Assembly: GCA_964498785.1 (NCBI GenBank)
Contig: CAZCJL010000021.1
Location: forward strand, 2,818 to 66,817
Direction: 5' to 3'
Length of the DNA: 64,000 bases
DNA from: an uncultured Cytophagia bacterium
GTDB lineage: Bacteria > Zhuqueibacterota > Zhuqueibacteria > Thermofontimicrobiales > Thiofontviventaceae
This document shows, piece after piece, positions 6,165 through 24,110 of the stretch. Both the position numbers and the translations under genes were made by a program. The notes under the pieces are model-generated. The model did not search any database. It saw nothing but the letters and a program-made list of their open reading frames with translations, and was not told the DNA's origin. How positions within the stretch are numbered: position 1 is the stretch's first letter; the number at the start of each line of letters is the position of its first letter.

Positions 6165-9100
6165 ATGAAATCACATTGTGTTTTCAAAATCATTATCGCA
6201 TTTTTACTTGTTCTGTATAAAATTGCCATTTCACAGAGTGATTTTAGCTCCTCATCTTCAAATATTAGCTCCACACAATTTATACCTGGTATATATTACA
6301 AGTATTTTCATGGAACCTGGACAAAATTACCGGTTTTTAATGATGAAAAACCGGTGGCGTCCGGAATTATCAATAATTTTGATATTAGCAATCGCCAGCA
6401 GGACGATCATTTTGCTTTTCAATTTCAGGGATATATTCATATTTCACGAGCTGGAAAATATCAATTTTATTTGAAATCTGATGACGGGGCCAAACTTTTT
6501 ATTAACGGAAAATCAATTGTTGATAACGACAACATGCATGTTGCACGAGAACGGAGCGGATCTGTTCAATTAAGCGAAGGCGTGCATTCCATTGAGTTAC
6601 ACTATTTTGAAAGGGAGGGCAGACAAGTATTGGAGCTACGTTACTCTGGTCCCGGAATAAAGAAAACAAAAATACCGGATCAGGTGTTATTCCGGGAGCA
6701 AATTGCAGGTTTTCCCATGCCCTGGCAGAACGAAGATATCGGACGGGTCTCGATTGGTGGTAGTGCATTCTATAACAATGGAAAATTTATTGTAAAAGCC
6801 TCTGGTGATGATATTTGGGGAGATGACGATGAATTTCATTTCGTCTATTGGCCAATGAATGCTGATGTTGAAATTATTGCAAAAATCAACTCAATAACTG
6901 ATACCGACGACTGGGCAAAGTCAGGGATAATGATTCGCGAATCTTTGAAAGATGATTCAAAACATGCTTTTATGCTAGTCACTCCGGATGAAGGATCCGC
7001 ATTTCAACGCCGCATTATAGATAAAAAAAATAGTTATCACTCCGGAAGCAGCGGTTCCGTTCCCATCTGGCTAAAACTGGAACGGATTGGAAATACATTT
7101 ACAGGTTACAAATCCAAAGATAGTCTGAACTGGATTCGGGTGGGAACCGAGCAGATCAAAATGGAGGATGAAACATACGCCGGAATTGCCCTCACCAGTC
7201 ATGATGATAGAAAATTGTGTACGAGCAATGTCCTAATTTATCTAAGTGGTGTTTACGATGATATCATTTTGACGCCTGAATTTCCTGTATTACCAGCAGA
7301 TGGTAAAAGTACAGTGAGCATTAAATCTGATCCATTATACGGATTTAAGGGCACGATCGTACCACAAGGAACACCGGTCACTGTAACCACAGACATGGGT
7401 AAAATTATTTCAATCGATAAAAATACCGAAATTTCAGGCGTGCAGGTGATGACCGATGAGCAGGGCCAAATCAGTTTTGAGTATCAGGCTGCAAATGAAC
7501 CGGGGATTGCGAAAGTATTTGCTAAAAGTGTTTTCGGAGACGCTAGCGGGGAAACGACCGTCGAACTATTGGGAGAAAACATCCAGCTTGTTTCAACAAA
7601 CTCTGACGTGACAGAGTTATCACAGGGACAGAAAAACATTCCTGTTTCAATGCGCATCCGAAATGAGGGTGTAATGACATCGCATCTTAGCGATGCTGAT
7701 TTAATCATATCCGGAACCGGATCGATTTCAGCCAGAAATCATTTTGATGTTCAGCGAACAGACACTCTGTCGATAGTAAGGCCAGCACAATCTGCAGAAT
7801 TGACTTTTATTGTGTCAGCTCATCCGGATGCTGATACAGTTACATATTCCATTGACGGGCGGTTGGTGACCGAAATTGGAACTTACACCAATTGCCTGCA
7901 TCAACACCAATGGCAGGTTGAATCTACACCCGCGTTACGAATTGAATCTATCGACGCGTTTGCAGACGATATATTTCAAGGACAGGACGGGCTAATTGTG
8001 ACGATGGAAGTGGTAAATAATGGTATGGCAACAGTGGATTCAGTTGACGCAGGATTAACATTTTGGCGCCAGGGTAATGATATTAGCCTGGAATATCAGG
8101 TAACACTAAGTGAGGACACTCCTCAAATAATAGATGGCCATTCAAAAATAACGATAATGTTTTTGGTGAATGTCTCCACATCCGCGACTCTTGATACGAT
8201 TGATATTATTGGTCATTTATCCGGTGTGGATGTGAATTCCGGAATAAAATATCACGCAGATTCTGATGATGCAATAGACAGATGGCTTGTTAAACGAGCC
8301 GAAGGTATTCTTTTTCAGGCTATTGATGTTTCGCATAAATACGCGATTATCGGACAGCAGGAGCCCTGGACTATTCGTACTCATGTGAGAAATGTGAGCG
8401 GTGTTGATTTGGAACTGGATAGTGTACAGGTAAAATTCAACATTTTTAATGAAGATGTGACAGATGAATACAATTTTATTTATCCGGAAACATTTTTAGG
8501 AACCCAAACAGTAGCATTTAATAACGAAGCTGAGGACAGTTTGCAAATTCACGTCAATTCATTCGGCGCCTCAGCCGGATTATTGGAAATAACGATTTTC
8601 ATTTATTGTCATGCACGAGATTTTCATTTTACAGTCAATGATTCAAGCCCGCGCGGGCTGGGTTATATTTTCATCTATGGACCGCCGGAACTGCAAATTT
8701 CCACGGAGATTGATAGCTGTTTTCATATTACTGAAAATGGAGACGGGCTTGTTAATCTGGATCAATCATTTGCAGTGAAGGTACTGGTGCGAAATATTGG
8801 AGATGAAGAGTTAAGTAATGTTGGCGTTACCATTTTGTCTAATGAAGAATGTATTTCAATATCAGATACGTCCCAAATTGCATCATCTGTTTTGAAAAAT
8901 CGATCAGCAACGCTTTTTTATAATTATATCGCGCAGGCAAACCTGGTTCCTGCCGTGGAATATTTTAATGTCCGGGTTGATAGTGCTTTTGGTTCAAAAA
9001 GCGGAGAGCCGGCTAAAATTAATCCGCTTTCCGATATGAACGCCCGGGTAACAATATTCCGCCCCGCTGAATTGCACATTACCGCAGATTCTCTGATTGA

Positions 9101-10919
9101 AACGCCAACAGATAAAATTTTTCCGGTCGATGTTACTGTGATTAATCCAAACGGCCATGCACAATGTGATAGCAGTGGCGAACTGACAATTAAATTACCG
9201 GACGGCTATTTTATTCGGGGTGAAAATTTGACGAAACGATTTCTACCGAATAAAAGCATTTCATGGAACGTTCGTTCGCCATCGAACGCGGTTGAAACTG
9301 ATTCAATTTTAATCTTCATCAGCCGGCGTTCCTATGATGTAAATATGCTTACACCGGCGATAGTCGGAACGGATTCTATCTTTGTAAAAGTAAATACACT
9401 TGAATCATTTGTTAATATAAAAAATGTGACGATTAATTCTCCAAATGGCGCGCGTGACGATACGTTATCAACCGGTCAGACATTTCAGGTATCAGCGATC
9501 ATTGGTCAGCAAATGGCAGCAAATATCAACGCAGTGATGGATATTCCGCCAGGTTATTCAATCGTGAGTTCGGAAAAAATTGATGATGACACACTCTTAT
9601 GTACATGGACGCTCACGGCGCCAAACTATCCGCATTACCAGCCAGAGATGTTCATTCTTAATGCAAGCGGAAATTTGGTTACTGATACCACAAAAATTGT
9701 CGGCATCCCGGATTCTTCTTTGTCAGTCGTGACCGTCAATCGAGCCAATCTCACTGTTGAAGCGGAGATTATCGATCCTCCGAAAGCAGTGGAAGGTCAG
9801 GTTCAGCCAGATATGGAATTTGTAATTTGCGGATATGTAAAAAACAACGGAGATGCTTCTATTTACGGCACTGGAAGCTTACGCCTTGATATTGAAGATC
9901 AAACACATTTTCAGATCATTGGGCCGGATGTGTTGCCAGCGAGTGAAGATTCGGTTACCTGGACGATCCGAACAGCAGCCGAATTACCGCAAGATAACTG
10001 GGTATTAAAAGTCAGGCTGCAGGATATTCCAGAAGATATCAATACGAATTCTGATGCATTCGTTGAAAAGGATTATAAAGATATCGCGGTGACCTCTGCC
10101 AGTGGCGGTGTCGGACGGTTGGAATTAATGATAAGGAAAATACCGGATATTGCGCAAACATCCATTGTTGCCGGTGAAACCAAAATTTTACTGGGTATTA
10201 CCTGCACCAACCTGTCGGTGGATAACGAAATTCCGATTCTGCTCCATTCATTTAAATGCGACACTTATGGTGAAAACGGTGATTTAATTTATCCGTTTCA
10301 AACAATGTCGGAAATTCGCATTGTTAATAGCCGAAAGCAAGTGGTTGCTCAAAGCACTGAAATTTATGCCAACCCGGTGACAATCGAATTCCATATACCA
10401 GACACGATTAAGGCGCAGCAATCAGACAGCCTCTTTTTTGAAATTGATTTTAATGAACAACTGGATCGCCGGTTTAAAATTTATATTAAAGACAGTTCGT
10501 ATGTTCGCGCAACATCGATTGTAGATGTTTACATGGTGAATGGTTTGGGGAATTCACACGGGAACTTAGATATTAGCTCGAATTGTCCGGTAATCATTCA
10601 GCGGAATTTGAAGAAATCGTTTCGCTGCTATCCCAATCCGTTTGGAAGCTCGAACAGAAGTAGCACGAATTTTGTGTATTATTTGGATCAAAATACCGCT
10701 GTGCAGCTTAAAATATTTACACTTCTGGGAGAACTGGTCTGGGAAGCGTCTTTTCGCGAAGATGAACCCCAGGCAAAAAAAGGATTACATGCCTCTGATG
10801 ATATTCGATGGGATGCCAAAAATATGCGCGGTAAAGAAGTGTTGAACGGTGTTTATATTGCTTGCATCCGTACTGGCGACGGCAAAACCGCAATCACCAA
10901 AGTTGCAGTCTTGAAATGA
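6165..10919 (+). CDS. Giant secreted cell-surface protein: signal peptide, PA14 domain, ConA-like/jelly-roll domain, multiple CARDB/Ig-like repeats and a C-terminal T9SS (Por) sorting domain
   Basis: - The N-terminus MKSHCVFKIIIAFLLVLYKIAISQ is a signal peptide.
- PA14 motif: GYIHISRAGKYQFYLKSDDGAKLFINGKSIVDND…ELHYFEREG.
- There are repeated '…V.V.N.G…' CARDB-like units.
- The last ~85 aa (CYPNPFGSS…VYIACIRTGDGKTAITKVAVLK) match the T9SS CTD pattern (YPNPF…, terminal beta-strands).
- There is no SD upstream. Confidence 0.8.
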   Translation: MKSHCVFKIIIAFLLVLYKIAISQSDFSSSSSNISSTQFIPGIYYKYFHGTWTKLPVFNDEKPVASGIINNFDISNRQQDDHFAFQFQGYIHISRAGKYQFYLKSDDGAKLFINGKSIVDNDNMHVARERSGSVQLSEGVHSIELHYFEREGRQVLELRYSGPGIKKTKIPDQVLFREQIAGFPMPWQNEDIGRVSIGGSAFYNNGKFIVKASGDDIWGDDDEFHFVYWPMNADVEIIAKINSITDTDDWAKSGIMIRESLKDDSKHAFMLVTPDEGSAFQRRIIDKKNSYHSGSSGSVPIWLKLERIGNTFTGYKSKDSLNWIRVGTEQIKMEDETYAGIALTSHDDRKLCTSNVLIYLSGVYDDIILTPEFPVLPADGKSTVSIKSDPLYGFKGTIVPQGTPVTVTTDMGKIISIDKNTEISGVQVMTDEQGQISFEYQAANEPGIAKVFAKSVFGDASGETTVELLGENIQLVSTNSDVTELSQGQKNIPVSMRIRNEGVMTSHLSDADLIISGTGSISARNHFDVQRTDTLSIVRPAQSAELTFIVSAHPDADTVTYSIDGRLVTEIGTYTNCLHQHQWQVESTPALRIESIDAFADDIFQGQDGLIVTMEVVNNGMATVDSVDAGLTFWRQGNDISLEYQVTLSEDTPQIIDGHSKITIMFLVNVSTSATLDTIDIIGHLSGVDVNSGIKYHADSDDAIDRWLVKRAEGILFQAIDVSHKYAIIGQQEPWTIRTHVRNVSGVDLELDSVQVKFNIFNEDVTDEYNFIYPETFLGTQTVAFNNEAEDSLQIHVNSFGASAGLLEITIFIYCHARDFHFTVNDSSPRGLGYIFIYGPPELQISTEIDSCFHITENGDGLVNLDQSFAVKVLVRNIGDEELSNVGVTILSNEECISISDTSQIASSVLKNRSATLFYNYIAQANLVPAVEYFNVRVDSAFGSKSGEPAKINPLSDMNARVTIFRPAELHITADSLIETPTDKIFPVDVTVINPNGHAQCDSSGELTIKLPDGYFIRGENLTKRFLPNKSISWNVRSPSNAVETDSILIFISRRSYDVNMLTPAIVGTDSIFVKVNTLESFVNIKNVTINSPNGARDDTLSTGQTFQVSAIIGQQMAANINAVMDIPPGYSIVSSEKIDDDTLLCTWTLTAPNYPHYQPEMFILNASGNLVTDTTKIVGIPDSSLSVVTVNRANLTVEAEIIDPPKAVEGQVQPDMEFVICGYVKNNGDASIYGTGSLRLDIEDQTHFQIIGPDVLPASEDSVTWTIRTAAELPQDNWVLKVRLQDIPEDINTNSDAFVEKDYKDIAVTSASGGVGRLELMIRKIPDIAQTSIVAGETKILLGITCTNLSVDNEIPILLHSFKCDTYGENGDLIYPFQTMSEIRIVNSRKQVVAQSTEIYANPVTIEFHIPDTIKAQQSDSLFFEIDFNEQLDRRFKIYIKDSSYVRATSIVDVYMVNGLGNSHGNLDISSNCPVIIQRNLKKSFRCYPNPFGSSNRSSTNFVYYLDQNTAVQLKIFTLLGELVWEASFREDEPQAKKGLHASDDIRWDAKNMRGKEVLNGVYIACIRTGDGKTAITKVAVLK

Positions 10920-12197: not shown

Positions 12198-12413
12198 ATG
12201 GCAGTAGAAAAAACCATCGCTTCTTCAAGCCTGGTAGAAGTTATCGACAGAGTGCTGGATAAGGGTATTGTAATCGACGCCTGGGCTCGTGTATCTTTAG
12301 TAGGTATTGAATTATTGGCTGTAGAAGCCCGCGTTGTTTTAGCTTCTGTAGAAACATATCTAAAATATGCTGAAGCAATCGGCTTAACAGCTACAGCGGC
12401 ACAACCCGCATAA
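12198..12413 (+). CDS. gvpA: Gas vesicle structural protein GvpA
   Basis: 71 aa: [64 protein letters not shown]. This is near-identical to the canonical cyanobacterial GvpA core. A strong SD (AAAGGAGGTG) lies 7 nt upstream. Confidence 0.97.
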
Positions 12414-12594: not shown

Positions 12595-13230
12595 ATGGAT
12601 TTGATTTACAACGTGCAGAAGCTCACAAAGGAAATGATTACAGGTTATGATTTGCGGGTGGCAAAAATTGAAGAAGTATTAACTTCAGCTTATGATGTAT
12701 TAGAAGATTGTCGGGAAAGTAGAAAGAACGTTCGCGAACAGCTCAAACACAGTCTTGCCAATAAAAACTCGTTGCGCCGAAAAGATTTTGATATGATCGT
12801 ACAAGATTTACATCAATCGCAAGTTGAATGTGAAGCTCGAATCAAAGAAACGGTGCACATATTTACCAGGGAAAATAAATATCTTGCTGGGCAATTTTTC
12901 GAATCATTAATAACCGGCAAAATTGAACAGTCTAAAAAGGCTGTTAACAAAATTGAAAAAAACGGGAAAGAGATTCAGCACACAATTAAAACGTTTCAAC
13001 AAGAACAAAAACAAATTGCAACGGATTTGCATTCGTTTCTGGAAAAATGTGAATCGATCCGTATTAAAGATTTTAAAAAAATGATTGAAAAAATTCGTAT
13101 CCGTCAATGTGAACGCAGTGAAAAGATTAAACAGTTCTTAAAAAAAATATCTGAAGAACATAAGCAAATGCGTGCTGTTTGGCAAAATATATCGACTGAT
13201 AAAGCAAAATCACGTAACACGGATGCGTGA
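12595..13230 (+). CDS. Coiled-coil repeat protein in the gvpC position (candidate GvpC-like gas-vesicle shell or scaffold protein)
   Basis: 211 aa, Lys/Glu/Gln-rich with predicted coiled coil. It has an internal repeat about 95 aa apart (SLRRKDFDMIVQDLHQSQVECEARIKE vs SIRIKDFKKMIEKIRIRQCERSEKIKQ). It lies immediately downstream of gvpA, where gvpC sits in cyanobacterial and Serratia clusters. Confidence 0.45.
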   Translation: MDLIYNVQKLTKEMITGYDLRVAKIEEVLTSAYDVLEDCRESRKNVREQLKHSLANKNSLRRKDFDMIVQDLHQSQVECEARIKETVHIFTRENKYLAGQFFESLITGKIEQSKKAVNKIEKNGKEIQHTIKTFQQEQKQIATDLHSFLEKCESIRIKDFKKMIEKIRIRQCERSEKIKQFLKKISEEHKQMRAVWQNISTDKAKSRNTDA

Positions 13231-13262: not shown

Positions 13263-14618
13263 ATGTCAAATTTAGATGATATGATGCGACTGAAAGAGGA
13301 GATCATCGCTTCGTTTGACGAGCGAATGAATACTCTTGCAAATATAGTTGAATCAACAACTGATCTCGCACAGTCAACACGAGAAATGACTGAACGACAT
13401 CGAAATGATCATCTTCTTATGAAAAATAATTTACAGTCACAATTAAGTGAATTTAGAACAAAATTGAGCGACGATAATTTAAAGCGCCTTGTTGCGACAA
13501 AGCATGAATTTAATGAAAGAATGAGTCAATTAACTGACTTGCTTGCTGCGTTTAAACCGGACGGAAAGTCGGAGTTGACACATTCAGTCAGAGAAACATT
13601 AGAAAAATTTCGTTCGGTGCGACTCGATGAATTCAATGTATTTTTGGAAAAATTACAGCAGCGTATTTATGAAATTAAAGACGAAGTTCATTCGACGATA
13701 GATGGGTTTAAGGAATCTCGGCATGAAATATCTGCCGCATTAGAGCGAAATTTGTCTGAATTTAATAAACAGCTTAAAAATTATCGGTCAACGCTTTCGA
13801 ACAACGAAAATAACAGATATAAGCAGGCGCAGGCAGAAATTCAAGAACGTACCATTTATCTGAATACTCTTTTTGGCGACGTCTCACGTTTGTTAAGCGA
13901 TTTTCGCACGGATCACCAGAAAATGTCGTCGATGTTAAAGGAGATGTTAACATTTAAGGGTTTCAATAACCAGCGGTTGAGCAATTTTCAAAATATGATG
14001 GATAATATTCTGGATCATCAGAAAAAGCGTGTTCACGATACAACCCAAATGATCTCAGGTTTTAATGAGTGGCATGATGATATAAAAAATGAATTGCATG
14101 ATCTGCTTTCTACTGTAAAATTGAATTTAGCGCAATTTAACGATGAACGCGTCAATTTAGCTCATGAAGAAATGAGTGAGCGCGTGGAATATATTTATCA
14201 AATGAAAAAAGACATCTCCACCATGCTGGGAAATTTGCGTAGTGAAAGCCAAAAAGTAGCGGACGAATGGAAGAATATCGCCAGAATAATAGACCAAAAA
14301 AGAAAAAAATCAGAAAAGGAACACATAAAGATTATTTCAGAAGAAGAACCTGAAATAAAAGCGCCAAAACCAGCGCCAGAAATGGAGAAGCAGGAAATTG
14401 TATCGAAAATGTATGCTTCGAAAACAGCGTCTGAAAATGATAACGACCCGAGTGACAAAATACTGGCTATTATCGCGCAACATGCTGATGAGGGAATTAA
14501 ATTGGCTGAAATTGGCAAGATTGTGAATAAAAAATGGCAGTCACTAATTCCTTTTACAAAAACACTTATGGAGCAGGGAAAGATAAAAAAAGAGGATACT
14601 GTGTATTTCCCGAATTAA
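13263..14618 (+). CDS. Large coiled-coil repeat protein (second GvpC-like candidate) with a C-terminal winged-helix-like segment
   Basis: 451 aa. A recurrent x[DEGN]F[RNKQ] motif appears at residues 64, 83, 116, 124, 149, 167, 213, 234, 242, 267 and 292. There is a clear internal duplication of about 118 aa (residues ~116-167 vs ~234-292). A Pro/Lys/Glu linker (EEEPEIKAPKPAPEMEKQE) precedes a C-terminal globular segment (ILAIIAQHADEGIKLAEIGKIVNKKW…). Confidence 0.45.
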   Translation: MSNLDDMMRLKEEIIASFDERMNTLANIVESTTDLAQSTREMTERHRNDHLLMKNNLQSQLSEFRTKLSDDNLKRLVATKHEFNERMSQLTDLLAAFKPDGKSELTHSVRETLEKFRSVRLDEFNVFLEKLQQRIYEIKDEVHSTIDGFKESRHEISAALERNLSEFNKQLKNYRSTLSNNENNRYKQAQAEIQERTIYLNTLFGDVSRLLSDFRTDHQKMSSMLKEMLTFKGFNNQRLSNFQNMMDNILDHQKKRVHDTTQMISGFNEWHDDIKNELHDLLSTVKLNLAQFNDERVNLAHEEMSERVEYIYQMKKDISTMLGNLRSESQKVADEWKNIARIIDQKRKKSEKEHIKIISEEEPEIKAPKPAPEMEKQEIVSKMYASKTASENDNDPSDKILAIIAQHADEGIKLAEIGKIVNKKWQSLIPFTKTLMEQGKIKKEDTVYFPN

Positions 14619-14665: not shown

Positions 14666-15580
14666 ATGAACAATAATTCCACCGTCGTTCTTGAGCCGCT
14701 ATTAGATGATGAATATGTAATTACTCCGTATTTGAAAGATATCCTCGAATCAGCAAGCAATTACATGGATGCTGGTTATCCGATTCATTTCTGTGGACCG
14801 GCAGGAACTGGCAAAACATCTCTTGCTATGTATCTGGCAGCAAAATATAACCGACCGATCGTAATGATGCACGGGGATAATGAATTTGTTACCTCAGATT
14901 TAATTGGCGCTGAGCACGGAATTCGATCTCGAAAAGTGGTGGACAATTTTATTCATCATGTTTATAAAACCGAGGAACGCATCGACCGACAGTGGATGGA
15001 TAAACGACTTTCTCTGGCATGTAAAAAAGGTTTCACGTTAATTTATGATGAGTTTACCCGGTCAAAACCAGAGGCCAATAATGTATTGCTTTCAATCCTG
15101 GAAGAAAGAATGCTTGACCTTCCCGCACAAGTGAAGGGGGATGTTTATATAAAAGTACATCCTGAATTCAGGGCAATTTTCACAAGCAATCCGCAGGAAT
15201 ATGTTGGCATACATCGGGCGCAAGATGCATTGTTAGATCGGATGATTACAATTGATTTACAGCATCTTGATTTGGATACGGAAATTCGGATTACACAAAA
15301 AAGAGCTGACCTCACTTATAAGCACGCCAAAAAAATAGTGAATATTGTCCGCAATTTTCATATAAAAAATGGTAATGAAAAAATTTCCACATTGAGAGAT
15401 GCCATAAAAATCGGTAAAATTTCCAAATTGATGAATATCACACCATCTAAATCACAAAATAGATTTCGGAAAATATGTGTTGATATTTTAACATCAGATC
15501 CTCACATTCACAAATTTAATGGCGCTCCAAAATCTCAGTCCTTGAAATTTCTGGATGAACTTATCGAAGTATATTGTTAA
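14666..15580 (+). CDS. gvpN: Gas vesicle protein GvpN (MoxR/CbbQ-type AAA+ ATPase)
   Basis: 304 aa with Walker A (HFCGPAGTGKTSLA), Walker B (LIYDEF) and CbbQ/NirQ/GvpN-type architecture, lying between the gvpA and gvpO/F genes. Confidence 0.9.
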   Translation: MNNNSTVVLEPLLDDEYVITPYLKDILESASNYMDAGYPIHFCGPAGTGKTSLAMYLAAKYNRPIVMMHGDNEFVTSDLIGAEHGIRSRKVVDNFIHHVYKTEERIDRQWMDKRLSLACKKGFTLIYDEFTRSKPEANNVLLSILEERMLDLPAQVKGDVYIKVHPEFRAIFTSNPQEYVGIHRAQDALLDRMITIDLQHLDLDTEIRITQKRADLTYKHAKKIVNIVRNFHIKNGNEKISTLRDAIKIGKISKLMNITPSKSQNRFRKICVDILTSDPHIHKFNGAPKSQSLKFLDELIEVYC

Positions 15581-15601: not shown

Positions 15602-15856
15602 ATGGCGCTTCAAAAGGTTATCGCTGCAATTAGCAACTTTTTTGAATCTGTATTAAATAAAAAGGGTCGGGTGATTGAGGTGAAAACTCAGGAGCGCGGC
15701 TGGTCTGCCTTGGTGGAAACAGTGGAAGAAGCCGAGTACATGCGCAAAATTGCCCAGGATGATCTGCTTGCTGTATATGAGGTTCACGTTGATCAAAATT
15801 ATGAAGTGGTTGACTACAGTCGAAAAAGTTTGCGTTCGAGAAAAGAAGCTGCATAA
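15602..15856 (+). CDS. gvpO: Gas vesicle protein GvpO
   Basis: 84 aa. The motif …GRVIEVKTQERGWSALVETVEEAEYMRKIAQDDLLAVYEVHVDQNYEVVDYSRK… matches the GvpO pattern (GW-V-VE-VE…LLA-YEV…G-VV-Y-R). An SD (AAAGGGGTGA) is present. Confidence 0.8.
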   Translation: MALQKVIAAISNFFESVLNKKGRVIEVKTQERGWSALVETVEEAEYMRKIAQDDLLAVYEVHVDQNYEVVDYSRKSLRSRKEAA

Positions 15857-15865
15857 GGTTTAAAA

Positions 15866-16192
15866 TTGAAAGGCGGTATTGGTATGTCACAAATTAAAGG
15901 ATTAAGTAATATTCGCTCCAGCCAGAGAATCCATCTAAGTTCTATTTCTAAAAAAGGACGTTCGAAATTCTTGACGCTGTTTATGTTGGATAATGAACGG
16001 CAATTATTGCAGAAAGATAGTGATATTTTGAAACAACGGCAATCAAGAAATCAGGAGCGGATTAAAGCAATTAACGCTGAGATTAATGAAAAACTGCAGC
16101 ACGATAGTGCAATGATTAATAAAAATGAAAAGGGACATTCTTTGATAAGAAAAATTCCGGAAAAGTGGAAGACTGCAAAAATCGATGTTTAA
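15866..16192 (+). CDS. Small basic coiled-coil protein of unknown function inside the gvp cluster
   Basis: 108 aa (or 102 aa from the second Met, MSQIKGL, at about 15884). It is rich in K/R/Q and sits between gvpO and the first gvpF/L. I recognised no known family. Confidence 0.4.
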   Translation: MKGGIGMSQIKGLSNIRSSQRIHLSSISKKGRSKFLTLFMLDNERQLLQKDSDILKQRQSRNQERIKAINAEINEKLQHDSAMINKNEKGHSLIRKIPEKWKTAKIDV

Positions 16193-16224: not shown

Positions 16225-17238
16225 ATGGCGGCAAAATATTTATACGGATTTATTGAGACTGATCGTGAGGAGAATTTCGGGAATATAGGCGTCGGTAATC
16301 AGAACAGGGTAACGACAATTCGTTATCGTGATGTTGCAGCAGTTGTTAGTGATCATCCTGTGATACAGTTTGATCAATTAGATGAAAGTCAGTTAACGAA
16401 CTATATTCAAAAACATCAGGTGGTTAATGAAAAGGTGCTGGAAAAACATACCATCATTCCGTTGAGGTTCGGAAACATTGCCCAAAATGCAGCAGATGTT
16501 CTGAAAATATTAAAACATGCTTATATTCAATTTAAAACACAACTGGATCAGTTGCAGGGAAAAATCGAACTTGTCATTCAGGCTACCGCGAACAAACAGG
16601 TCTGGTTGAAGGAGATCGTCGAGACAAATACGACGATAAAAGATTTGACAAAGAAATTGGATAAATCCGATGCGCAGGAGAAAATTCCCATCCAGGTCGA
16701 AATCGGAAAAATAATTCACAATACAATCGTACATAAAGAAAAAGAGATAGTCGTTGATATATTGGCAACACTTCGAAATGGCGGAAGTCCATATAGATCG
16801 GATAAATTACTGACCCAGGATATGATAATGAATATGTCCTTTTTAATTGATAGAACTGCTGAGTCTGCGTTTGATCAAAAATTAAATGAATTAGGGCAAC
16901 GATATGCAAATGATCTCACTTTCAAGTATATTGGCCCGCTACCGCCGTACAGTTTTACACAATTGAATTTAAAAACCACTGATTTGAATTTCATTAATAA
17001 TGCGCGAAAAATGCTGAATTTGCCAGGGAAAGCCTCAAAAAAGGAGATCAAAAAAGCGTATCGAACAATGGCGTCAAAATATCATCCGGATAGGACTGGA
17101 AATGATTCTCAAAAATTTAATGAAATTCACAACGCGTATCGCACTCTGGAAGTGTTTTGCAATAATTACCGCTATTCATTTGATGAAAAAACAATAAGTG
17201 AAACAGTGCTTATTGATGAACATTATAAAGAAGAATAG
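16225..17238 (+). CDS. GvpF/GvpL-family gas vesicle protein fused to a C-terminal DnaJ J-domain
   Basis: The real start is MAAKYLYGFIE at 16225, with a GGTGGA SD 5 nt upstream; the 16165 ORF start is an upstream extension. GvpF/L hallmarks are present: YLYGFI…VTTIRYRDVAAVVS…IPLRFG…KYIGPLPPYSF. The last ~70 aa (LPGKASKKEIKKAYRTMASKYHPDRTGNDSQKFNEIHNAYRTLEVF) form a J-domain with an intact HPD motif. Confidence 0.8.
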   Translation: MAAKYLYGFIETDREENFGNIGVGNQNRVTTIRYRDVAAVVSDHPVIQFDQLDESQLTNYIQKHQVVNEKVLEKHTIIPLRFGNIAQNAADVLKILKHAYIQFKTQLDQLQGKIELVIQATANKQVWLKEIVETNTTIKDLTKKLDKSDAQEKIPIQVEIGKIIHNTIVHKEKEIVVDILATLRNGGSPYRSDKLLTQDMIMNMSFLIDRTAESAFDQKLNELGQRYANDLTFKYIGPLPPYSFTQLNLKTTDLNFINNARKMLNLPGKASKKEIKKAYRTMASKYHPDRTGNDSQKFNEIHNAYRTLEVFCNNYRYSFDEKTISETVLIDEHYKEE

Positions 17239-17242
17239 TAAT

Positions 17243-18004
17243 ATGGGAAAATATATTTACTGCATTGTCGAAAACAGAGACCATCCGCAATTTACATCGA
17301 AAAATATTGGCAAAGAGTATTCTCCTGTTTATACCCTTAAATATAAAGATATTGGGGCAGTTATTAGTGAATCTCCGATTACAAAATATTCGTTTATTAG
17401 TGATAATTATATTGCACATCAAAAAGTAATTGAAGAATCTCAATCATACAATTTAAATCCATTACCAGTTCGGTTTTGCACAATTGCAAATAATGAGGAG
17501 AGCATTTGTGCAATATTAGATAAACGATATGAAGATTTTCAAGCGAATTTAAAACAGATGCAGGGAAAATACGAACTTGGTTTGAAAGTATTTTGGAAAG
17601 ATAATATTGCCTATGATGAAATTTTGCTGAACAATCCATCTATTCAAGCAGAGCGAGATCGATTGAAATCAATGGATCCTGAAAAAACCTATTTTCTACG
17701 TATCCGCGTTGGAGAGCTGGTTGAAAAAGCGATTACTGAAAAACGCGAACGTGAAATGCAAGAATTCATCAATCGTTTTCAGAATATTTGTTATGATTTA
17801 TCCATGGGACGTATCATTGGCGATAAGATGATATTTAACGCAGCATTTTTAGTCGATCGTGGCCAGGAAAAATTATTGGACGAAGAAGTGAATCGAATTG
17901 CTTTTGATAATGAATCTCGTTTGAAAATTAAATATGTTGGACCGGTTCCTCCATATAATTTTGTAGAAATTACGATAAATACGAATGAACTCGGTTTAAA
18001 TTAG
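17243..18004 (+). CDS. gvpF: GvpF/GvpL-family gas vesicle protein (paralog 2)
   Basis: Starts MGKYIYCIVE at 17243, after the upstream stop at 17236-17238. Motifs YIYCIV…YKDIGAVISE…PVRFCT…KYVGPVPPYNF are present. Confidence 0.8.
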   Translation: MGKYIYCIVENRDHPQFTSKNIGKEYSPVYTLKYKDIGAVISESPITKYSFISDNYIAHQKVIEESQSYNLNPLPVRFCTIANNEESICAILDKRYEDFQANLKQMQGKYELGLKVFWKDNIAYDEILLNNPSIQAERDRLKSMDPEKTYFLRIRVGELVEKAITEKREREMQEFINRFQNICYDLSMGRIIGDKMIFNAAFLVDRGQEKLLDEEVNRIAFDNESRLKIKYVGPVPPYNFVEITINTNELGLN

Positions 18005-18018
18005 GGATAAAATAAATA

Positions 18019-18249
18019 ATGGCGTTCATCATCGATGACATTTTATCACTGCCGGTTAAAGGAATCATCGGAATTTTCAAAGAAATTCATAACTACGCAG
18101 ATAAAGAGTTAAACGATATAGATTTCTGGCAACAAAAATTGCTCGAATTACAACTTCGTTATGAAATGGGGGAAATAGAGGAGCTGGAATTTAAACAACA
18201 GGAGAAAGATATTGTACAACGAATTTCCGAAATTCAAGAACGAGGATAA
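18019..18249 (+). CDS. gvpG: Gas vesicle protein GvpG
   Basis: 76 aa. MAFIIDDILSLPVKGIIGIFKEIHNYADKEL… matches the GvpG N-terminal MFLIDDLL…P pattern, and its position after gvpF is canonical. Confidence 0.8.
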   Translation: MAFIIDDILSLPVKGIIGIFKEIHNYADKELNDIDFWQQKLLELQLRYEMGEIEELEFKQQEKDIVQRISEIQERG

Positions 18250-19048
18250 TTTATATCTTTACTGTGTGCGGGAGAGGCGTGCCAATGAATTAAACGTGAC
18301 CGGTATATTTAATCAGGAAAAGGTTTTTTCGATCGTTTGTAAAAATTTAGAAGCAATTGTCAGTATTGTCCCGCAAAATCAATTTGATGATACTGATATA
18401 AAGAAGAAGGCACGGGAAGATATCAACTGGATAAAGGAAAAGGCGCAACTCCACGAGGCAATTGTGGAAAAAGCGATGTATCATTCATCAGAAATATATC
18501 CGGTTATTCCCATGCGGTTTGGAACGATTTTCAAATCAAAAGAAAAAATTAATCACCTGCTAACAAAGCACTACCATCAGTACAGCAATACAATTGCCCG
18601 TCTGACAAAAAAACAGGAATGGAGTGTAAAAGTATATCTGACGCATCAGGATCGGATCACCGATCATGTTGTTAGCACCAACGAATTTATCAAAAAAGAA
18701 CAAGCAGATGTCGCGGTTTTACCAAAAGGAATGGCCTATTTCATGCAAAAAAAACTTAACGAAATGGTAAAAAACGCTGTTGACGACAAAATGAATCAAT
18801 ATGTTCACGATATCATTGAGAGATTGGAAAAACATTCAACAGGACGTCACGAAGGAAAATTACTGGGACCGGAATTTACCGGGAAGAAAGCAACAATGGT
18901 TCTGAATGCAATTCTCCTGATTCATGAGGAAAGTGTTTTGGATTTAATTGAGGCAATACAGAAACTTCAGGATGAAATGAATGTTTTCGGGTTCCGGTTT
19001 GAATATAGCGGTCCGTGGCCTCCGTATCATTTTGTGGAGTCGCAGTAA
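18212..19048 (+). CDS. gvpL: GvpF/GvpL-family gas vesicle protein (paralog 3, GvpL-like)
   Basis: 278 aa with motifs LYLYCV…PMRFGTIF…FEYSGPWPPYHF. Its annotated start overlaps gvpG by 38 nt, so the start is uncertain. Confidence 0.7.
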   Translation: MYNEFPKFKNEDNLYLYCVRERRANELNVTGIFNQEKVFSIVCKNLEAIVSIVPQNQFDDTDIKKKAREDINWIKEKAQLHEAIVEKAMYHSSEIYPVIPMRFGTIFKSKEKINHLLTKHYHQYSNTIARLTKKQEWSVKVYLTHQDRITDHVVSTNEFIKKEQADVAVLPKGMAYFMQKKLNEMVKNAVDDKMNQYVHDIIERLEKHSTGRHEGKLLGPEFTGKKATMVLNAILLIHEESVLDLIEAIQKLQDEMNVFGFRFEYSGPWPPYHFVESQ

Positions 19049-19629: not shown

Positions 19630-19950
19630 ATGTCGGAACAGATAACCCACGGACTTCATTCCACAAATCTCGCGGATATTTTAGAGAGAGTATTGGATAA
19701 GGGGATTGTAATTGCCGGAGATATCCAAATTAAGCTTGCGGATATTGAGTTGCTAACGATAAAAATACGACTTATGGTGGCGTCTGTAGATAAAGCCGTT
19801 GAAATGGGAATTAATTGGTGGGAAAGTGATCCTTATTTAAATAATAATTCCAACGAATTAATCGAAGAAAATAATCAATTAAAAGAAAAATTAAATAAAA
19901 TTGAACGACAACAACAGCAGCGTAAACGAGGGTTAAAAGATGGAGAATAA
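19630..19950 (+). CDS. gvpJ: Gas vesicle protein GvpJ
   Basis: 106 aa. [57 protein letters not shown] shows a GvpA-fold plus the GvpJ-typical 'WW…DP.L' region and a basic C-tail. Confidence 0.85.
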   Translation: MSEQITHGLHSTNLADILERVLDKGIVIAGDIQIKLADIELLTIKIRLMVASVDKAVEMGINWWESDPYLNNNSNELIEENNQLKEKLNKIERQQQQRKRGLKDGE

Positions 19951-20470
19951 TAAAAAGAAAAAAGAGAAAGAACATGAGGTTAAAATAGATTTTGGGTTAG
20001 GAGGTTTGTTTAAAGGGCTCGGCAATCTGGTTGACCTTGTGTCTGAAATGTCTGAAAAAGGGGAGCAGATCAAGGAAAGAACGCAGGAATTTTCTGGTAA
20101 AGGTCCGTTCAAGGATGTGAACGGAGTTTATGGATTTTCAATTAAAATGGGCGCGAGTGGAAAACCTGAAGTAAATTCTTTTGGAAATGTAAAGAAAAGT
20201 CAAAACGGGCCTGTGGTTGATGAGGTGAGAGAACCGATGGTCGATATTTTTGAGGAAGATGATGAAATTCAGATCATCGCGGAAATGCCAGGTGTGGCTA
20301 AAAATCAAATCAAATTAGAATTGAATGGTGATGTGATGATGATTAGCGCGCAAAATAACAAACGAAAGTACCAGAAAGAGCTATTGTTACCAACACCAGT
20401 GAAAGAGCAGACAGTGGTCTATTCTTATAAAAATGGTATTCTTGAAGTTAAATTGGCGAAAAATTCATAG
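19940..20470 (+). CDS. Hsp20/alpha-crystallin small heat-shock protein (GvpH-like)
   Basis: 176 aa. The alpha-crystallin domain REPMVDIFEEDDEIQIIAEMPGVAKNQIKLELNGDVMMISA…VVYSYKNGILEVKLAK follows a Lys-rich N-terminus. Confidence 0.8.
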   Translation: MENNKKKKEKEHEVKIDFGLGGLFKGLGNLVDLVSEMSEKGEQIKERTQEFSGKGPFKDVNGVYGFSIKMGASGKPEVNSFGNVKKSQNGPVVDEVREPMVDIFEEDDEIQIIAEMPGVAKNQIKLELNGDVMMISAQNNKRKYQKELLLPTPVKEQTVVYSYKNGILEVKLAKNS

Positions 20471-20500: not shown

Positions 20501-22639
20501 ATGGCGGAATCTACTGACAAAACGATTATACGATTGAGGGTAGCCGAATCGATGGCAAAAGATGTTGGCCGCGGGATTGCGCGCATCGACCCTGTTGATA
20601 TGAAGGCAATAAATGCCAGCGTTGGTGATATTGTTGAGATTGCCGGAAAAAGAAAAACAGTTGCCAAACTGATGCCCACGTATTCTGAATATCGGGAAAA
20701 AGGTTTAATCCAAATCGACGGCCTGATTCGAGAAAATGCCAAAGTGGGGCTGGATGAGCGCGTCGGAATCAAAAAAATCGAATCCCAACCGGCGACTAAA
20801 ATAATACTGGATCCGCTGTCCATTATTTCCGGTAGTTTACGAGAAAGCCGTTATATTGGTCGATTAATTGAGGGATTACCATTACAAAAGGGCGACCGCA
20901 TCCGGGCGAATTTAATCGGTTCCCGGTCCCAGGATTTTACTGTCATTGATACGAATCCGGGAGGAGTGGTGATGGTTCAGCCGTCCTCTCTTATTCAGAT
21001 TAAATCCAGAGATGAACAGAAGAAAGCTGGTCAAAAGATATCTTATGAAGATATTGGCGGTCTTCACAAAGAGATTCAACGAATCCGCGAAATGATTGAG
21101 CTTCCGCTAAAATATCCTCAAATTTTCCAACGGCTGGGAATTGACCCGCCAAAAGGAGTGCTGTTACTGGGGCCACCGGGAACCGGAAAAACGCTAATTG
21201 CCAGGGCGGTTGCAAACGAAACAGAAGCCTCATTTTTTGCGATCAATGGTCCGGAAGTGATTCATAAGTTTTACGGTGAAAGTGAAGCAAAACTACGCAG
21301 CATTTTTGAACAGGCAAATAAACAAGCGCCGAGCATCATTTTTCTCGACGAAATTGATGCGATATCACCAAAACGTGAATCTGTGGTTGGTGATGTTGAA
21401 AAAAGAGTTGTGGCTCAATTATTAGCTCTTATGGATGGACTTGCCAGCCGGGGACAGATTATCGTAATTGGCGCGACAAATATTCCCAATGCAATAGACC
21501 CGGCACTGCGCCGCCCCGGACGGTTTGATAGGGAAATCACCATTGGTGTTCCCGATAAAAAGGGGAGAGAACAGGTTCTGGAAATTCATACTCGTGGTAT
21601 GCCTCTGGCGGCAGATATTGATTTAAAAAGACTTGCCGAAATGACCCATGGCTTTGTCGGTGCAGATTTAGCAGCGCTATGCCGCGAATCGGCAATGAGC
21701 GCTTTGCGTACTATTTTCCCTAAAATCGATTTTGGTATGGATTCCATTCCCTATGAGACTATCCTGGAACTGGAAATAAACATGGACCACTTTTATGAGG
21801 CAATGAAAGAGGTAGAACCCTCTGCCACCCGTGAGGTATCTGTAGAAGTACCGAATGTCCGTTGGGATCAGGTTGGAGGATTGCAGGACGTAAAACAAAA
21901 ATTAATTGAAGCAATTGAGTGGCCGTTAAAATATGCGGAATTATTCGAAATTGCCAAAACGACTCCGCCGAAAGGAATTGTTTTACACGGACAACCGGGG
22001 ACCGGGAAAACATTATTGGCTAAAGCAGTGGCCACAGAAAGCGAGGTGAATTTTATTTCCATCAAAGGGCCGGAATTATTATCGAAATGGGTTGGTGAAA
22101 GCGAAAAGGGCGTTCGGGAGCTTTTTAAAAAAGCACGCCAGGCGGCTCCGTGCATACTCTTTTTTGACGAAATTGACGCCATTGCACCGGTTCGAGGCAG
22201 TGGCGGCTCAGATTCGCATGTTACAGAAAGAGTTATTAGTCAATTGCTCACTGAATTGGACGGTATCGAGGGCTTAAAAAACGTTGTCGTGATTGCGGCA
22301 ACAAACAGAATCGATATTATTGATGCGGCAGTATTACGACCGGGTCGATTTGATTTTTTGATCGAGCTTCCGGTGCCGGATCCTGAATCCAGAACAAAAA
22401 TATTCAATGTTCATTTGCATGATAAACCATTAGATAAAGATGTGAAGATTTCGAATTTGGTCAATGATACAGAAGGATTTGTAGGAGCAGACATCGAATC
22501 AATTTGTCGATATGCTTCCATGCTGGCAATTCGTGATGTAGTGGAGTCGCAAAAAGGGGATCAATTTGATTTAGAAAAGCTTCGATTAACTATGAAACAT
22601 TTTAAAATAGCGATTAACGATGCCGGTCAAAGGACTTAA
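20501..22639 (+). CDS. CDC48/VCP/VAT-type AAA+ ATPase (N-domain plus tandem D1 and D2 rings)
   Basis: 712 aa with an N-terminal double-psi-barrel-like segment. There are two Walker A sites ([22 protein letters not shown]), two Walker B sites ([18 protein letters not shown]) and second-region-of-homology motifs. Confidence 0.85.
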
Positions 22640-23105
22640 ACAGATAAAAACGCTTTCTTCAACTCGTCGAATTTCTGATAAAAATGGTCTCAATAAAATC
22701 AGTTCTTTAACAGTTATCAGGCACGTTCAAGCTCCTCCTGTAAAGAATCACCAGTCATATTCGCCAAAGACATGGGTTTTTATTGCAGAGCCAAAATTTG
22801 TGCGTTACCGGCAAAGTTTGCTTATCGAACGCTCTGAGGAACCTATGACTGAACTTTTCCAGGAAGCAGAAGCTGTTATTGTTATCGCTGAAATTCCGGG
22901 TGTTGCAGGAACAGACGATTTGAAATTAACGGTGGAAGGGGATATTTTAATTCTTGAAGCAATGGTCCGGGGGAAACAGGCCAATCGAAAATATTTTAAA
23001 GAAATCATCATCCCATTTCAAATAAATGAACGAGATATTGTTTTTTCATTAAACAACGGACTATTTGAAATTAAGTTATTTCCCCTAACCAGGAGGCATA
23101 AATGA
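22620..23105 (+). CDS. Divergent Hsp20/alpha-crystallin-like protein
   Basis: The C-terminal ~85 aa resemble an alpha-crystallin domain ([37 protein letters not shown]…[14 protein letters not shown]). The annotated N-terminus overlaps the AAA+ gene by 20 nt, so the true start may be internal (e.g. MTELF at about 22845). Confidence 0.55.
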
Positions 23106-23491
23106 GTTATATAAAAGTAATGGTCGTTGATGATAACGATGAAATACTTGATTTATTTAAAGATTTATTTCAAGAATTAAAATACCATGTGATGCTGGCA
23201 CATGATGGTAATGAGGCATTGCAATTATTCAAAAAAGAACAACCAGATGTAATTTTTCTGGATATTAGGATGCCTGGCCCGGATGGTATCGAAACACTTA
23301 AAAAATTAAAGCAAATTGATAATGGTAATAATGCAACAGTTGTGATGATAACAGGTTACGGTGATATTGAAACAGCCAGGCAGGCGATGCAATTGGGCGC
23401 TTACGAGTATCTTACAAAACCAATTGATTTGAATGCAATCAAGTCGATCTGTGAAGAAGTTATAGAAGAAACGGTGGTTGTGAATGCCTGA
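23102..23491 (+). CDS. Stand-alone response-regulator receiver domain (CheY-like)
   Basis: 129 aa. VMVVDDNDEILDL…DVIFLDIRMPGPDG…MITGYGD…KP shows the Asp pocket, the phospho-acceptor D in LDIRMP and the conserved K. There is no output domain. Confidence 0.85.
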   Translation: MSYIKVMVVDDNDEILDLFKDLFQELKYHVMLAHDGNEALQLFKKEQPDVIFLDIRMPGPDGIETLKKLKQIDNGNNATVVMITGYGDIETARQAMQLGAYEYLTKPIDLNAIKSICEEVIEETVVVNA

Positions 23492-24110
23492 TTTGATTTA
23501 TGTGCCAATCGTTCATACAGAAGCAGATTTGGGTACTCTTGCCAAATCGTTCAAAAATGAATATACGAAAAAATATTCAAGGCAGCGTTATGAAAACCAT
23601 GTTCAGACTATTCAGAGAATGTGGGATGAAATTAGTGTTTCATTATTAAAGATGGATCTGGAATGGCACAAAATACGGATATATCAGGATGGCCTTCCGG
23701 TATGTGGAAAAGAAGCTGAAATTGTCACAGAATTAGCCGCGCAGGGAAGCCGAAATCATCAATTAGTATTATTACTGATTGAAAAAGGTGCTCATTTAGA
23801 GGGAACTGAAGACAAAAAATTGCTATTAGAGGAATATCAGCATTATCAGAATATTTTTAATGCCAAAAGTCCTGTTATAAAAAACAGGTTGCTACACAAT
23901 TATCAAAAGAAAAGCGAGAAATTGTTGTACCAGCGGGATCAATTTGTTGCGAAACAAATTACAAACACACTGCGAGCGGGTGAAACCGCAATCCTGTTTA
24001 TGGGAATGCTCCATCATGTTGAACAATTTCTTGATAAAAAGATTCGTATTCAATACCTGATCCGCAGGCTTCCGTTGCATAAAAATGCTCGGTTAACAAC
24101 TGTCGAGTAA
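23484..24110 (+). CDS. Hypothetical protein of unknown family, translationally coupled to the receiver gene
   Basis: 208 aa with an 8-nt overlap with the receiver gene. I recognised no motif. It is the last gene of the plus-strand gvp block. Confidence 0.4.
   Translation: MPDLIYVPIVHTEADLGTLAKSFKNEYTKKYSRQRYENHVQTIQRMWDEISVSLLKMDLEWHKIRIYQDGLPVCGKEAEIVTELAAQGSRNHQLVLLLIEKGAHLEGTEDKKLLLEEYQHYQNIFNAKSPVIKNRLLHNYQKKSEKLLYQRDQFVAKQITNTLRAGETAILFMGMLHHVEQFLDKKIRIQYLIRRLPLHKNARLTTVE

Follow-up and report, generated by a model that had tools for sequence, protein, structure and literature searches.

How does the gas vesicle shell protein GvpA, which is extremely hydrophobic and prone to aggregation, stay soluble and enter the growing shell? 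This open question is raised by a gene in a 64,000-nucleotide stretch of DNA (the window in what follows) from an uncultured Cytophagia bacterium, contig CAZCJL010000021.1 of assembly GCA_964498785.1. Within a complete gas vesicle (gvp) gene cluster of this window, the gene at 16225-17238 encodes a GvpF/L protein that ends in a DnaJ-type J-domain. A function of GvpF as chaperone of GvpA has so far only been hypothesised in recent interaction studies (PMC11445434). We propose that the fusion protein is a putative class C J co-chaperone, in which GvpF/L would serve as the targeting module that brings Hsp70 to clients of the GvpA family. From the domain content, the predicted structure and the genes found beside the fusion in other genomes, we give this reading a probability of roughly 70%.

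Domain organization and predicted structure of the fusion protein

The ATG of the fusion gene is preceded by a ribosome-binding site, GGTGGA, and Pfam recognizes only two families in its product, both above their curated cut-offs (23.6 bits for PF06386 and 27.8 bits for PF00226). The GvpL_GvpF family PF06386 matches residues 4-245 (E 5e-54, 184.3 bits) and is covered from position 2 to 244 of its 245 positions. The protein is indeed, as an earlier sequence-only reading of this DNA had it, the first of three GvpF/L paralogs in the window. That reading also placed a J-domain of about 70 residues with an intact HPD motif at the C terminus, and the string that it quoted for it, ...KKEIKKAYRTMASKYHPDRTGNDSQKFNEIHNAYRTLE..., is present in the translation of 16225-17238. 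DnaJ (PF00226) matches here at residues 262-308 (E 1.3e-13, 51.2 bits), and HPD is found intact at residues 287-289. The J-domain is thus genuine, with a canonical part of about 61 residues; the last 23 residues counted with it belong to a tail that is specific for the family. The HPD of a J-domain triggers ATP hydrolysis by Hsp70 and trapping of the client. Across the six frames of the window, the motif HPD[KRL] is unique to the fusion gene. Pfam and NCBIfam models revealed neither a G/F region nor a zinc finger nor a C-terminal domain of DnaJ in the protein. Since a J-domain without these elements is joined to an unrelated GvpF/L targeting module, the predicted product is by its architecture a class C (type III) J-protein.

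A structure was predicted with AlphaFold (AF2) from an alignment of 40 sequences (pLDDT 90.8, pTM 0.77). With Foldseek, 6L5D and 4QSG, both crystal structures of GvpF, were found as matches for residues 1 to about 255 of the model (E 1e-15 to 3e-14), with target TM-scores of 0.84 for 6L5D_B (E 1e-15) and 0.80 for 4QSG. The model thus predicts the two-domain alpha/beta fold of GvpF for the body of the fusion. The C terminus matched solved J-domains at a probability of 1.00, with a root-mean-square deviation of 1.3-4 Å over 48-71 columns. Among these are the J-domains of Sis1, Ydj1, DNAJA1 and Thermus thermophilus DnaJ, as well as 5NRO_B, a J-domain bound to DnaK. As modelled, the J fold would be compatible with DnaK binding. 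Helices I, II and III are formed by residues 254-263, 272-286 and 295-314, respectively. The segment comprising helix II, the HPD loop and helix III aligns without gaps to human DNAJA1 and Escherichia coli DnaJ, with KKAYR..A.KYHPD and F..I..AY..L as common residues. A J-domain of four helices had been expected from structure prediction. Helices I to III, with the HPD between II and III, are in agreement with this expectation, whereas the fourth is replaced by the tail. The consensus of this tail (Y311, often C312, then (Y/C)-S-F, V and a terminal hydrophobic strand) is kept family-wide, and in the model it forms a short helix (321-325) and a beta-strand (328-332).

Distribution and conservation of the fusion

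Both Pfam domains were present in 41 of the 46 homologs found with the single protein, down to 28% identity. In the 40-sequence alignment, not a single gap separates the C-terminal GvpF/L motif GPLPPYSF from the HPD. A degenerate DNA pattern built on this fixed spacing, GP.P...F-x34-Y-x7-HPD, was scanned in one genome per GTDB species. It gave at least 119 stretches, and 8 kb were fetched for each locus. True fusions, i.e. a single ORF (open reading frame) matching both a hidden Markov model of the GvpF/L part and one of the J-domain plus tail, account for 117 of the 119 stretches listed. The other two were left out of all counts: L018 is the housekeeping dnaK-dnaJ operon of a Polynucleobacter, and L116 is a chance match to the pattern.

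The search for GvpF/L-DnaJ fusions that had been suggested for this gene thus yielded at least 117 of them, spread over many bacterial phyla and three archaeal groups. The bacterial carriers listed belong to Bacteroidota, Chlorobiaceae, Nitrospirota, Desulfobacterota, Chloroflexota, Alpha-, Beta- and Gammaproteobacteria, Actinomycetota, Planctomycetota, Lentisphaerota, Spirochaetales and candidate phyla, and the archaeal ones to Bathyarchaeota, Halobacteria and Methanomicrobia. Several carriers are in culture, namely Prosthecomicrobium pneumaticum DSM 16268 with locus L024, Chlorobium phaeovibrioides, Desulfoluna spongiiphila, Marinobacter gelidimuriae, Dictyobacter vulcani, D. aurantiacus, Rhodoblastus sphagnicola and an Oscillochloris sp. 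When 1.84 billion representatives were searched exhaustively with a profile, 1431 proteins matched at E<=1e-30; the best 150 of these, each standing for one 50%-identity cluster, were all full-length, with essentially the whole profile aligned. Judged from these comparisons, the fusion is a large, ancient and conserved subfamily rather than a one-off curiosity.

The HPD is kept in 38 of the 40 aligned homologs, and in 144 of 148 representatives (97%) from a set that was chosen without regard to this motif. Such conservation points to purifying selection on the HPD. A few members (P0042 and P0043 in the alignment; P0244, P0254, P0276 and P0312 among the representatives) have lost the HPD and keep the J-like helices and the tail. 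Degenerate motifs are found at this place: QPD, AQRG, QRRN, EYRS and EQRS. These proteins may be natural 'J-dead' variants, and as such evolutionary controls.

A joining of two genes by a frameshift or an assembly error had been named as what would refute the fusion. The identical ORF is present in an independent Logan assembly of SRR7048224 (the same sequence is also in NCBI), and both sides of the domain junction are in frame with the homologs. Together with the hundreds of distant full-length homologs, this rules out an artefact, and the fusion is a genuine single gene.

The fusion proteins also stand apart from other GvpF/L proteins when the J-domain is removed. Compared by the GvpF/L body alone, all 108 fusions have as best match another fusion from a different locus, and all 197 plain GvpF/L paralogs have a plain paralog as best match. 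The fusion bodies thus form their own orthologous subfamily. The protein of the window stays below both NCBIfam equivalog cut-offs, with 77.9 bits for GvpF (NF052351, cut-off 350) and 67.5 bits for GvpL (NF045778, cut-off 200). Because the second paralog of the window leans towards GvpF and the third towards GvpL, the fusion is best regarded as an additional, third type. In databases its copies are labelled 'GvpL/GvpF family gas vesicle protein', 'hypothetical protein' or 'DnaJ-domain-containing protein'.

Hsp70 and other proteostasis genes beside the fusion

That the J-domain works with Hsp70, as the sequence-only reading had assumed, receives independent support from gene neighbourhoods. An Hsp70 gene lies within the gvp cluster in 14 of the 117 listed fusion loci, and in 12 of them it directly follows the fusion gene on the same strand, starting at or overlapping its stop codon. 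These and the following neighbour-gene counts are lower bounds, each locus being 8 kb long. The cluster-encoded Hsp70s are full length (583-777 bits with PF00012), with the signatures of the nucleotide-binding domain, the interdomain linker VLLLDV, the substrate-binding domain and the lid. They look like ordinary DnaK and not like the specialised HscA type. The linked pairs of fusion and Hsp70 fall into about four lineages: Bathyarchaeota; Halobacteria with Methanomicrobia; Beta- with Gammaproteobacteria; and Chloroflexota. In these lineages the two proteins co-vary, with identities of 62-79% within groups and 41-55% between groups. All five listed archaeal loci have an adjacent Hsp70, but no more than two or three independent lineages stand behind them. 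Among the cultured carriers, Marinobacter gelidimuriae BF04_CF-4 (L083) has its Hsp70 gene next to the fusion.

The ORFs flanking the cluster-encoded Hsp70s include PAS histidine kinases, a transposase, YkuD, DUF2272 and ArsA. In one Bathyarchaeota metagenome-assembled genome (MAG), two adjacent ORFs of 230 and 428 residues (L005, 3660-5622, minus strand) together make up the Hsp70 beside the J-fusion; this split reflects a frameshift or pseudogene, or else an error in sequencing. A Methanomicrobia MAG carries an ArsA-type ATPase (PF02374, 313 bits; L086, 1-1380, plus strand) in the same 8-kb locus as a J-fusion, an Hsp70 and an Hsp20, which echoes the association of ArsA with gvp genes noted before (PMC2963123). 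PAS-domain histidine kinases and response regulators are found inside Hsp70-bearing gvp clusters of proteobacteria (L083, 1673-3232, minus strand; L031, 757-2265, plus strand). The gvp cluster of the window is likewise closed by a response regulator.

Other proteostasis genes are linked to the fusion more frequently. A CDC48-type AAA+ ATPase is present in 74 of the 117 listed loci, and in 61 loci its gene is the direct upstream neighbour of the fusion gene. Hsp20 homologs occur in 48 and homologs of the weak Hsp20-like protein of the window in 46, and the commonest downstream neighbour of the fusion gene is a plain GvpF/L (73 of 117). The cluster of the window contains CDC48, Hsp20 and plain GvpF/L genes in another order, and its CDC48 gene is flanked by the Hsp20 gene on one side and by the weak Hsp20-like one on the other. 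From the linkage of CDC48, Hsp20 and GvpF/L, the fusion therefore appears to mark a type of gvp cluster that is rich in proteostasis genes. The Hsp20s and the CDC48-type ATPase of the window probably act in the same proteostasis pathway as the fusion protein. It is worth noting that their linkage fits a role in quality control or disassembly as well as a role in assembly.

Proposed mechanism and alternative explanations

In the mechanism that we propose, the GvpF/L body would bind GvpA-family shell proteins or the accessory Gvp/nucleation complex, by extrapolation from GvpF and GvpL. GvpF, for which a chaperone-like function has been proposed, is the primary or only protein to bind GvpA directly, and GvpL is the scaffold to which the accessory Gvps bind; these interactions, and the need for such proteins in vesicle formation, are known for haloarchaeal and Bacillus megaterium paralogs only (PMC7688916, PMC11445434). 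The J-domain would dock at the interface of nucleotide-binding domain and linker of ATP-bound Hsp70 and trigger ATP hydrolysis. Hsp70 would then clamp onto the hydrophobic GvpA/J-type client carried by the GvpF/L body. As a result, the aggregation-prone shell protein could be kept soluble, passed into the growing vesicle, or freed from GvpF/L. In the source genome the Hsp70 partner would be the housekeeping DnaK, which is assumed because the window does not encode an Hsp70. The nascent vesicle wall and soluble GvpA/J oligomers, the two destinations of Hsp70 suggested by the sequence-only reading, both remain candidates, together with misassembled or collapsed material. Delivery of the client into the growing shell is the outcome that we favour, with about an even chance overall; its extraction and recycling with CDC48 and Hsp20 seems markedly less probable.

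Several observations weigh against this mechanism. No Hsp70 signature was found in the six frames of the window, and even as a lower bound the proportion of 8-kb fusion loci with an Hsp70 is only 12%. Among the flanking ORFs inspected beside the cluster-encoded Hsp70s, there is no GrpE or other co-chaperone. The canonical helix IV is not matched, as the PF00226 alignments end at position 53 of the 63 profile positions (residues 308-309). About 3% of the family lack the HPD, and such members would have to work without stimulating Hsp70. Finally, the fusion subfamily is neither a GvpF nor a GvpL equivalog, and its binding to GvpA is extrapolated from paralogs.

The missing helix IV, the loss of the HPD in P0042, P0043 and four of the 148 representatives and the window devoid of Hsp70 could also mean that the J-like domain is independent of Hsp70, as a structural relic or an interaction module. 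This would hardly account for an HPD that 97% of the members keep at a fixed spacing from the GvpF/L C terminus, nor for the Hsp70 gene that adjoins the fusion gene in 12 listed loci. Taken together with an assembly or frameshift artefact, which is effectively refuted by the same ORF in an independent assembly and by hundreds of full-length homologs across phyla, this is the least probable of the explanations considered here. If Hsp70 is recruited, its client could be the fusion protein itself or the accessory Gvp complex, which would be remodelled or dissociated for regulation or recycling, GvpA being left untouched. Proteins of the GvpL type reportedly serve as scaffolds to which all accessory Gvps bind, and the conserved tail and the linker strands around the J-domain suggest a tight coupling to the GvpF/L body. 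However, J-domain proteins usually present a separate client, and the hydrophobic GvpA-family proteins are obvious substrates for Hsp70, so that such a self-directed function is quite improbable.

More serious is the possibility that the fusion serves disassembly or quality control. Hsp70 would then be recruited not for building vesicles but for extracting, disaggregating or recycling the GvpA of misassembled aggregates or collapsed vesicles, helped by the Hsp20 holdase and the CDC48-type unfoldase, by analogy with the triad of small heat-shock proteins, Hsp70 and ClpB/Hsp104 or with the uncoating of clathrin by auxilin and Hsc70. Disassembly is the typical outcome when a J-protein directs Hsp70 to an ordered lattice or to aggregates. 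The frequent CDC48-type ATPase, so often immediately upstream of the fusion gene, and the Hsp20s of the listed loci would fit this function, as would the presence of fusion, Hsp20 and CDC48-type ATPase together in the cluster of the window. On the other hand, the fusion gene is placed among the core assembly genes gvpN, O, F/L, G, K and J, with GvpF/L as its usual downstream neighbour, the published functions of GvpF/L belong to early assembly, and we know of no data showing active recycling of gas vesicle protein. Disassembly is thus rather unlikely. It shares the recruitment of Hsp70 with the explanation that we prefer, a GvpF/L-targeted J co-chaperone serving GvpA-family clients, and differs from it only in direction.

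The gas vesicle cluster of the window

The features of the cluster are collected in Table 1. Two long coiled-coil proteins without family match are encoded directly after gvpA (12595-13230 and 13263-14618, plus strand). Homologs of them are found in only 2-3 of the 117 listed loci, and they may be lineage-specific outer scaffold proteins resembling GvpC. Directly upstream of the fusion gene lies a small ORF of 102 residues (15884-16192, plus strand), also without family match and conserved in seven listed loci. The GvpJ/M-GvpK ORF is a second domain fusion within the gvp cluster. Beyond the response regulator, a 208-residue protein without Pfam or NCBIfam match (23484-24110, plus strand) has homologs in 16 listed loci, in nine of which the gene directly follows the J-fusion gene; by this recurrence it appears to be a conserved, uncharacterised gvp-cluster protein.

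Table 1. Coordinates in the window of the fusion gene, its parts and the other genes of the gvp cluster.
Feature	Position	Strand	Basis or remark
gvpA, major shell protein, presumed ultimate client	12198..12413	+	PF00741
gvpN (AAA_5 ATPase)	14666..15580	+	Pfam
gvpO	15602..15856	+	Pfam
GvpF/L-J fusion gene	16225..17238	+	unbroken ORF, 337 residues, TAG stop 17236-17238
GvpF/L domain, residues 4-245	16234..16959	+	PF06386; GvpF structure matches 6L5D, 4QSG
J-domain helices I-III, residues 254-314	16984..17166	+	PF00226, AlphaFold model, Foldseek, alignment to DNAJA1 and E. coli DnaJ
HPD tripeptide H287-P288-D289, Hsp70 ATPase-stimulating motif	17083..17091	+	between helices II and III
Family-specific C-terminal tail, residues 315-337	17167..17235	+	in place of canonical helix IV
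Plain GvpF/L paralog 2, more GvpF-like	17243..18004	+	starts 5 nt past the stop of the fusion gene
gvpG	18019..18249	+	Pfam
Plain GvpF/L paralog 3, more GvpL-like	18212..19048	+	Pfam, NCBIfam
GvpJ/M-like (PF00741) and GvpK (PF05121) fusion, 179 residues	19050..19589	+	single ORF
GvpJ/S-like GvpA-family protein	19630..19950	+	Pfam
Hsp20 small heat-shock protein	19940..20470	+	Pfam
CDC48-family double-ring AAA+ ATPase	20501..22639	+	TIGR01243, 954 bits, cut-off 803
Weak Hsp20-like protein	22620..23105	+	17 bits, below cut-off
Response regulator	23102..23491	+	end of gvp cluster

The rest of the window is ordinary chromosome, with genes for MutS, DnaB, two RelA/SpoT proteins and Lnt. By its DnaB, whose named matches at 72-73% identity are from KSB1, the DNA is assigned to an uncultured bacterium of this candidate division. 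The RelA/SpoT-family paralogs are full-length and in tandem (31415-33634 and 33732-35945, minus strand; 622 and 725 bits with TIGR00691). A secreted protein of 1584 residues (6165-10919, plus strand) has a PA14 domain and a C terminus similar to the sorting signals of type IX secretion, which fits an organism of the FCB group (KSB1).

Significance

Neither the fusion nor Hsp70 genes in gvp clusters nor the linkage of CDC48 to gvp genes was found described in the full text of about 8 million open-access papers and preprints, subscription-only literature being outside this search. The nearest precedent dates from 2010, when Hsp20 and ArsA were noted in gvp clusters, without J-domain or Hsp70 (PMC2963123). 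A mention of Hsp70 in PMC2270826 concerns immunology and is irrelevant to gvp clusters. The GvpF/L-J fusion is thus a widespread subfamily that is apparently undescribed. It combines known kinds of protein and is of interest for the gas vesicle and chaperone fields, without introducing a new principle.

A natural fusion of GvpF/L and J-domain, often with an adjoining Hsp70, constitutes independent evolutionary evidence that GvpF/L acts at the step where the shell protein is handed over by chaperones. The fusion makes this idea directly testable, by HPD point mutants and ATPase assays, and the cultured carriers give experimental entry points. Acoustic reporters are being engineered from gas vesicles, and the majority of mined clusters do not work in E. 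coli. A requirement for a matching set of Hsp70, J-protein, CDC48 and Hsp20 would be a concrete and testable variable for such failures. We can tentatively go one step further, at well below even odds, and envisage that in a large share of non-model producers, from many bacterial phyla and several groups of archaea, shell assembly or turnover is more than self-assembly aided by accessory Gvps. It would be driven by ATP through a dedicated gvp-encoded module, with the GvpF/L-J adaptor loading Hsp70 onto GvpA-family proteins, Hsp20 proteins as holdases and CDC48 as unfoldase. Clusters that enter hosts without a compatible Hsp70 would carry their own. If true, the failure of many gvp clusters in heterologous hosts would find its explanation in this module.

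Comparison with known systems

Canonical DnaJ (TIGR02349) has in common with the fusion the segment from helix II through the HPD loop to helix III, which aligns without gaps. The fusion however scores only 44.4 bits with this model (cut-off 377.2), over residues 263-309 only, and has none of the G/F, CXXCXGXG and C-terminal client-binding domains. The fusion-bearing gvp clusters resemble the disaggregase systems IbpAB-DnaKJ-ClpB and Hsp104 in that they also encode Hsp20 and a double-ring AAA+ ATPase. This ATPase belongs to the CDC48 type rather than to ClpB/Hsp104, and the co-operation suggested among the proteins is deduced only from the linkage of the genes.

With GvpF and GvpL (PF06386; 4QSG, 6L5D) the fusion shares the fold, and its gene stands beside gvpG, gvpK, gvpJ and two plain paralogs. 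In contrast to them, it adds a C-terminal J-domain and a conserved tail, and its body belongs to a separate subfamily below the cut-offs of both equivalogs. A functional parallel is provided by dedicated J-proteins of class C, among them HscB (with HscA), auxilin, Mycoplasma TopJ and DjlA, which like the fusion combine an HPD J-domain with a module that specifies the client or the site. Such targeted roles are Fe-S cluster assembly for HscB, clathrin uncoating for auxilin and assembly of the terminal organelle for TopJ in Mycoplasma. Models of TopJ and DjlA matched the fusion weakly and in the J part only. The fusion differs from these proteins in that its J-domain is C-terminal and without canonical helix IV, and in that its targeting module is the GvpF/L fold, for which no report of this use was found in the literature searched. 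The Hsp70s linked to the fusion are ordinary, DnaK-like proteins and not of the HscA type; as in the HscB-HscA pair, a dedicated Hsp70 is encoded beside the J-protein in some of the genomes.

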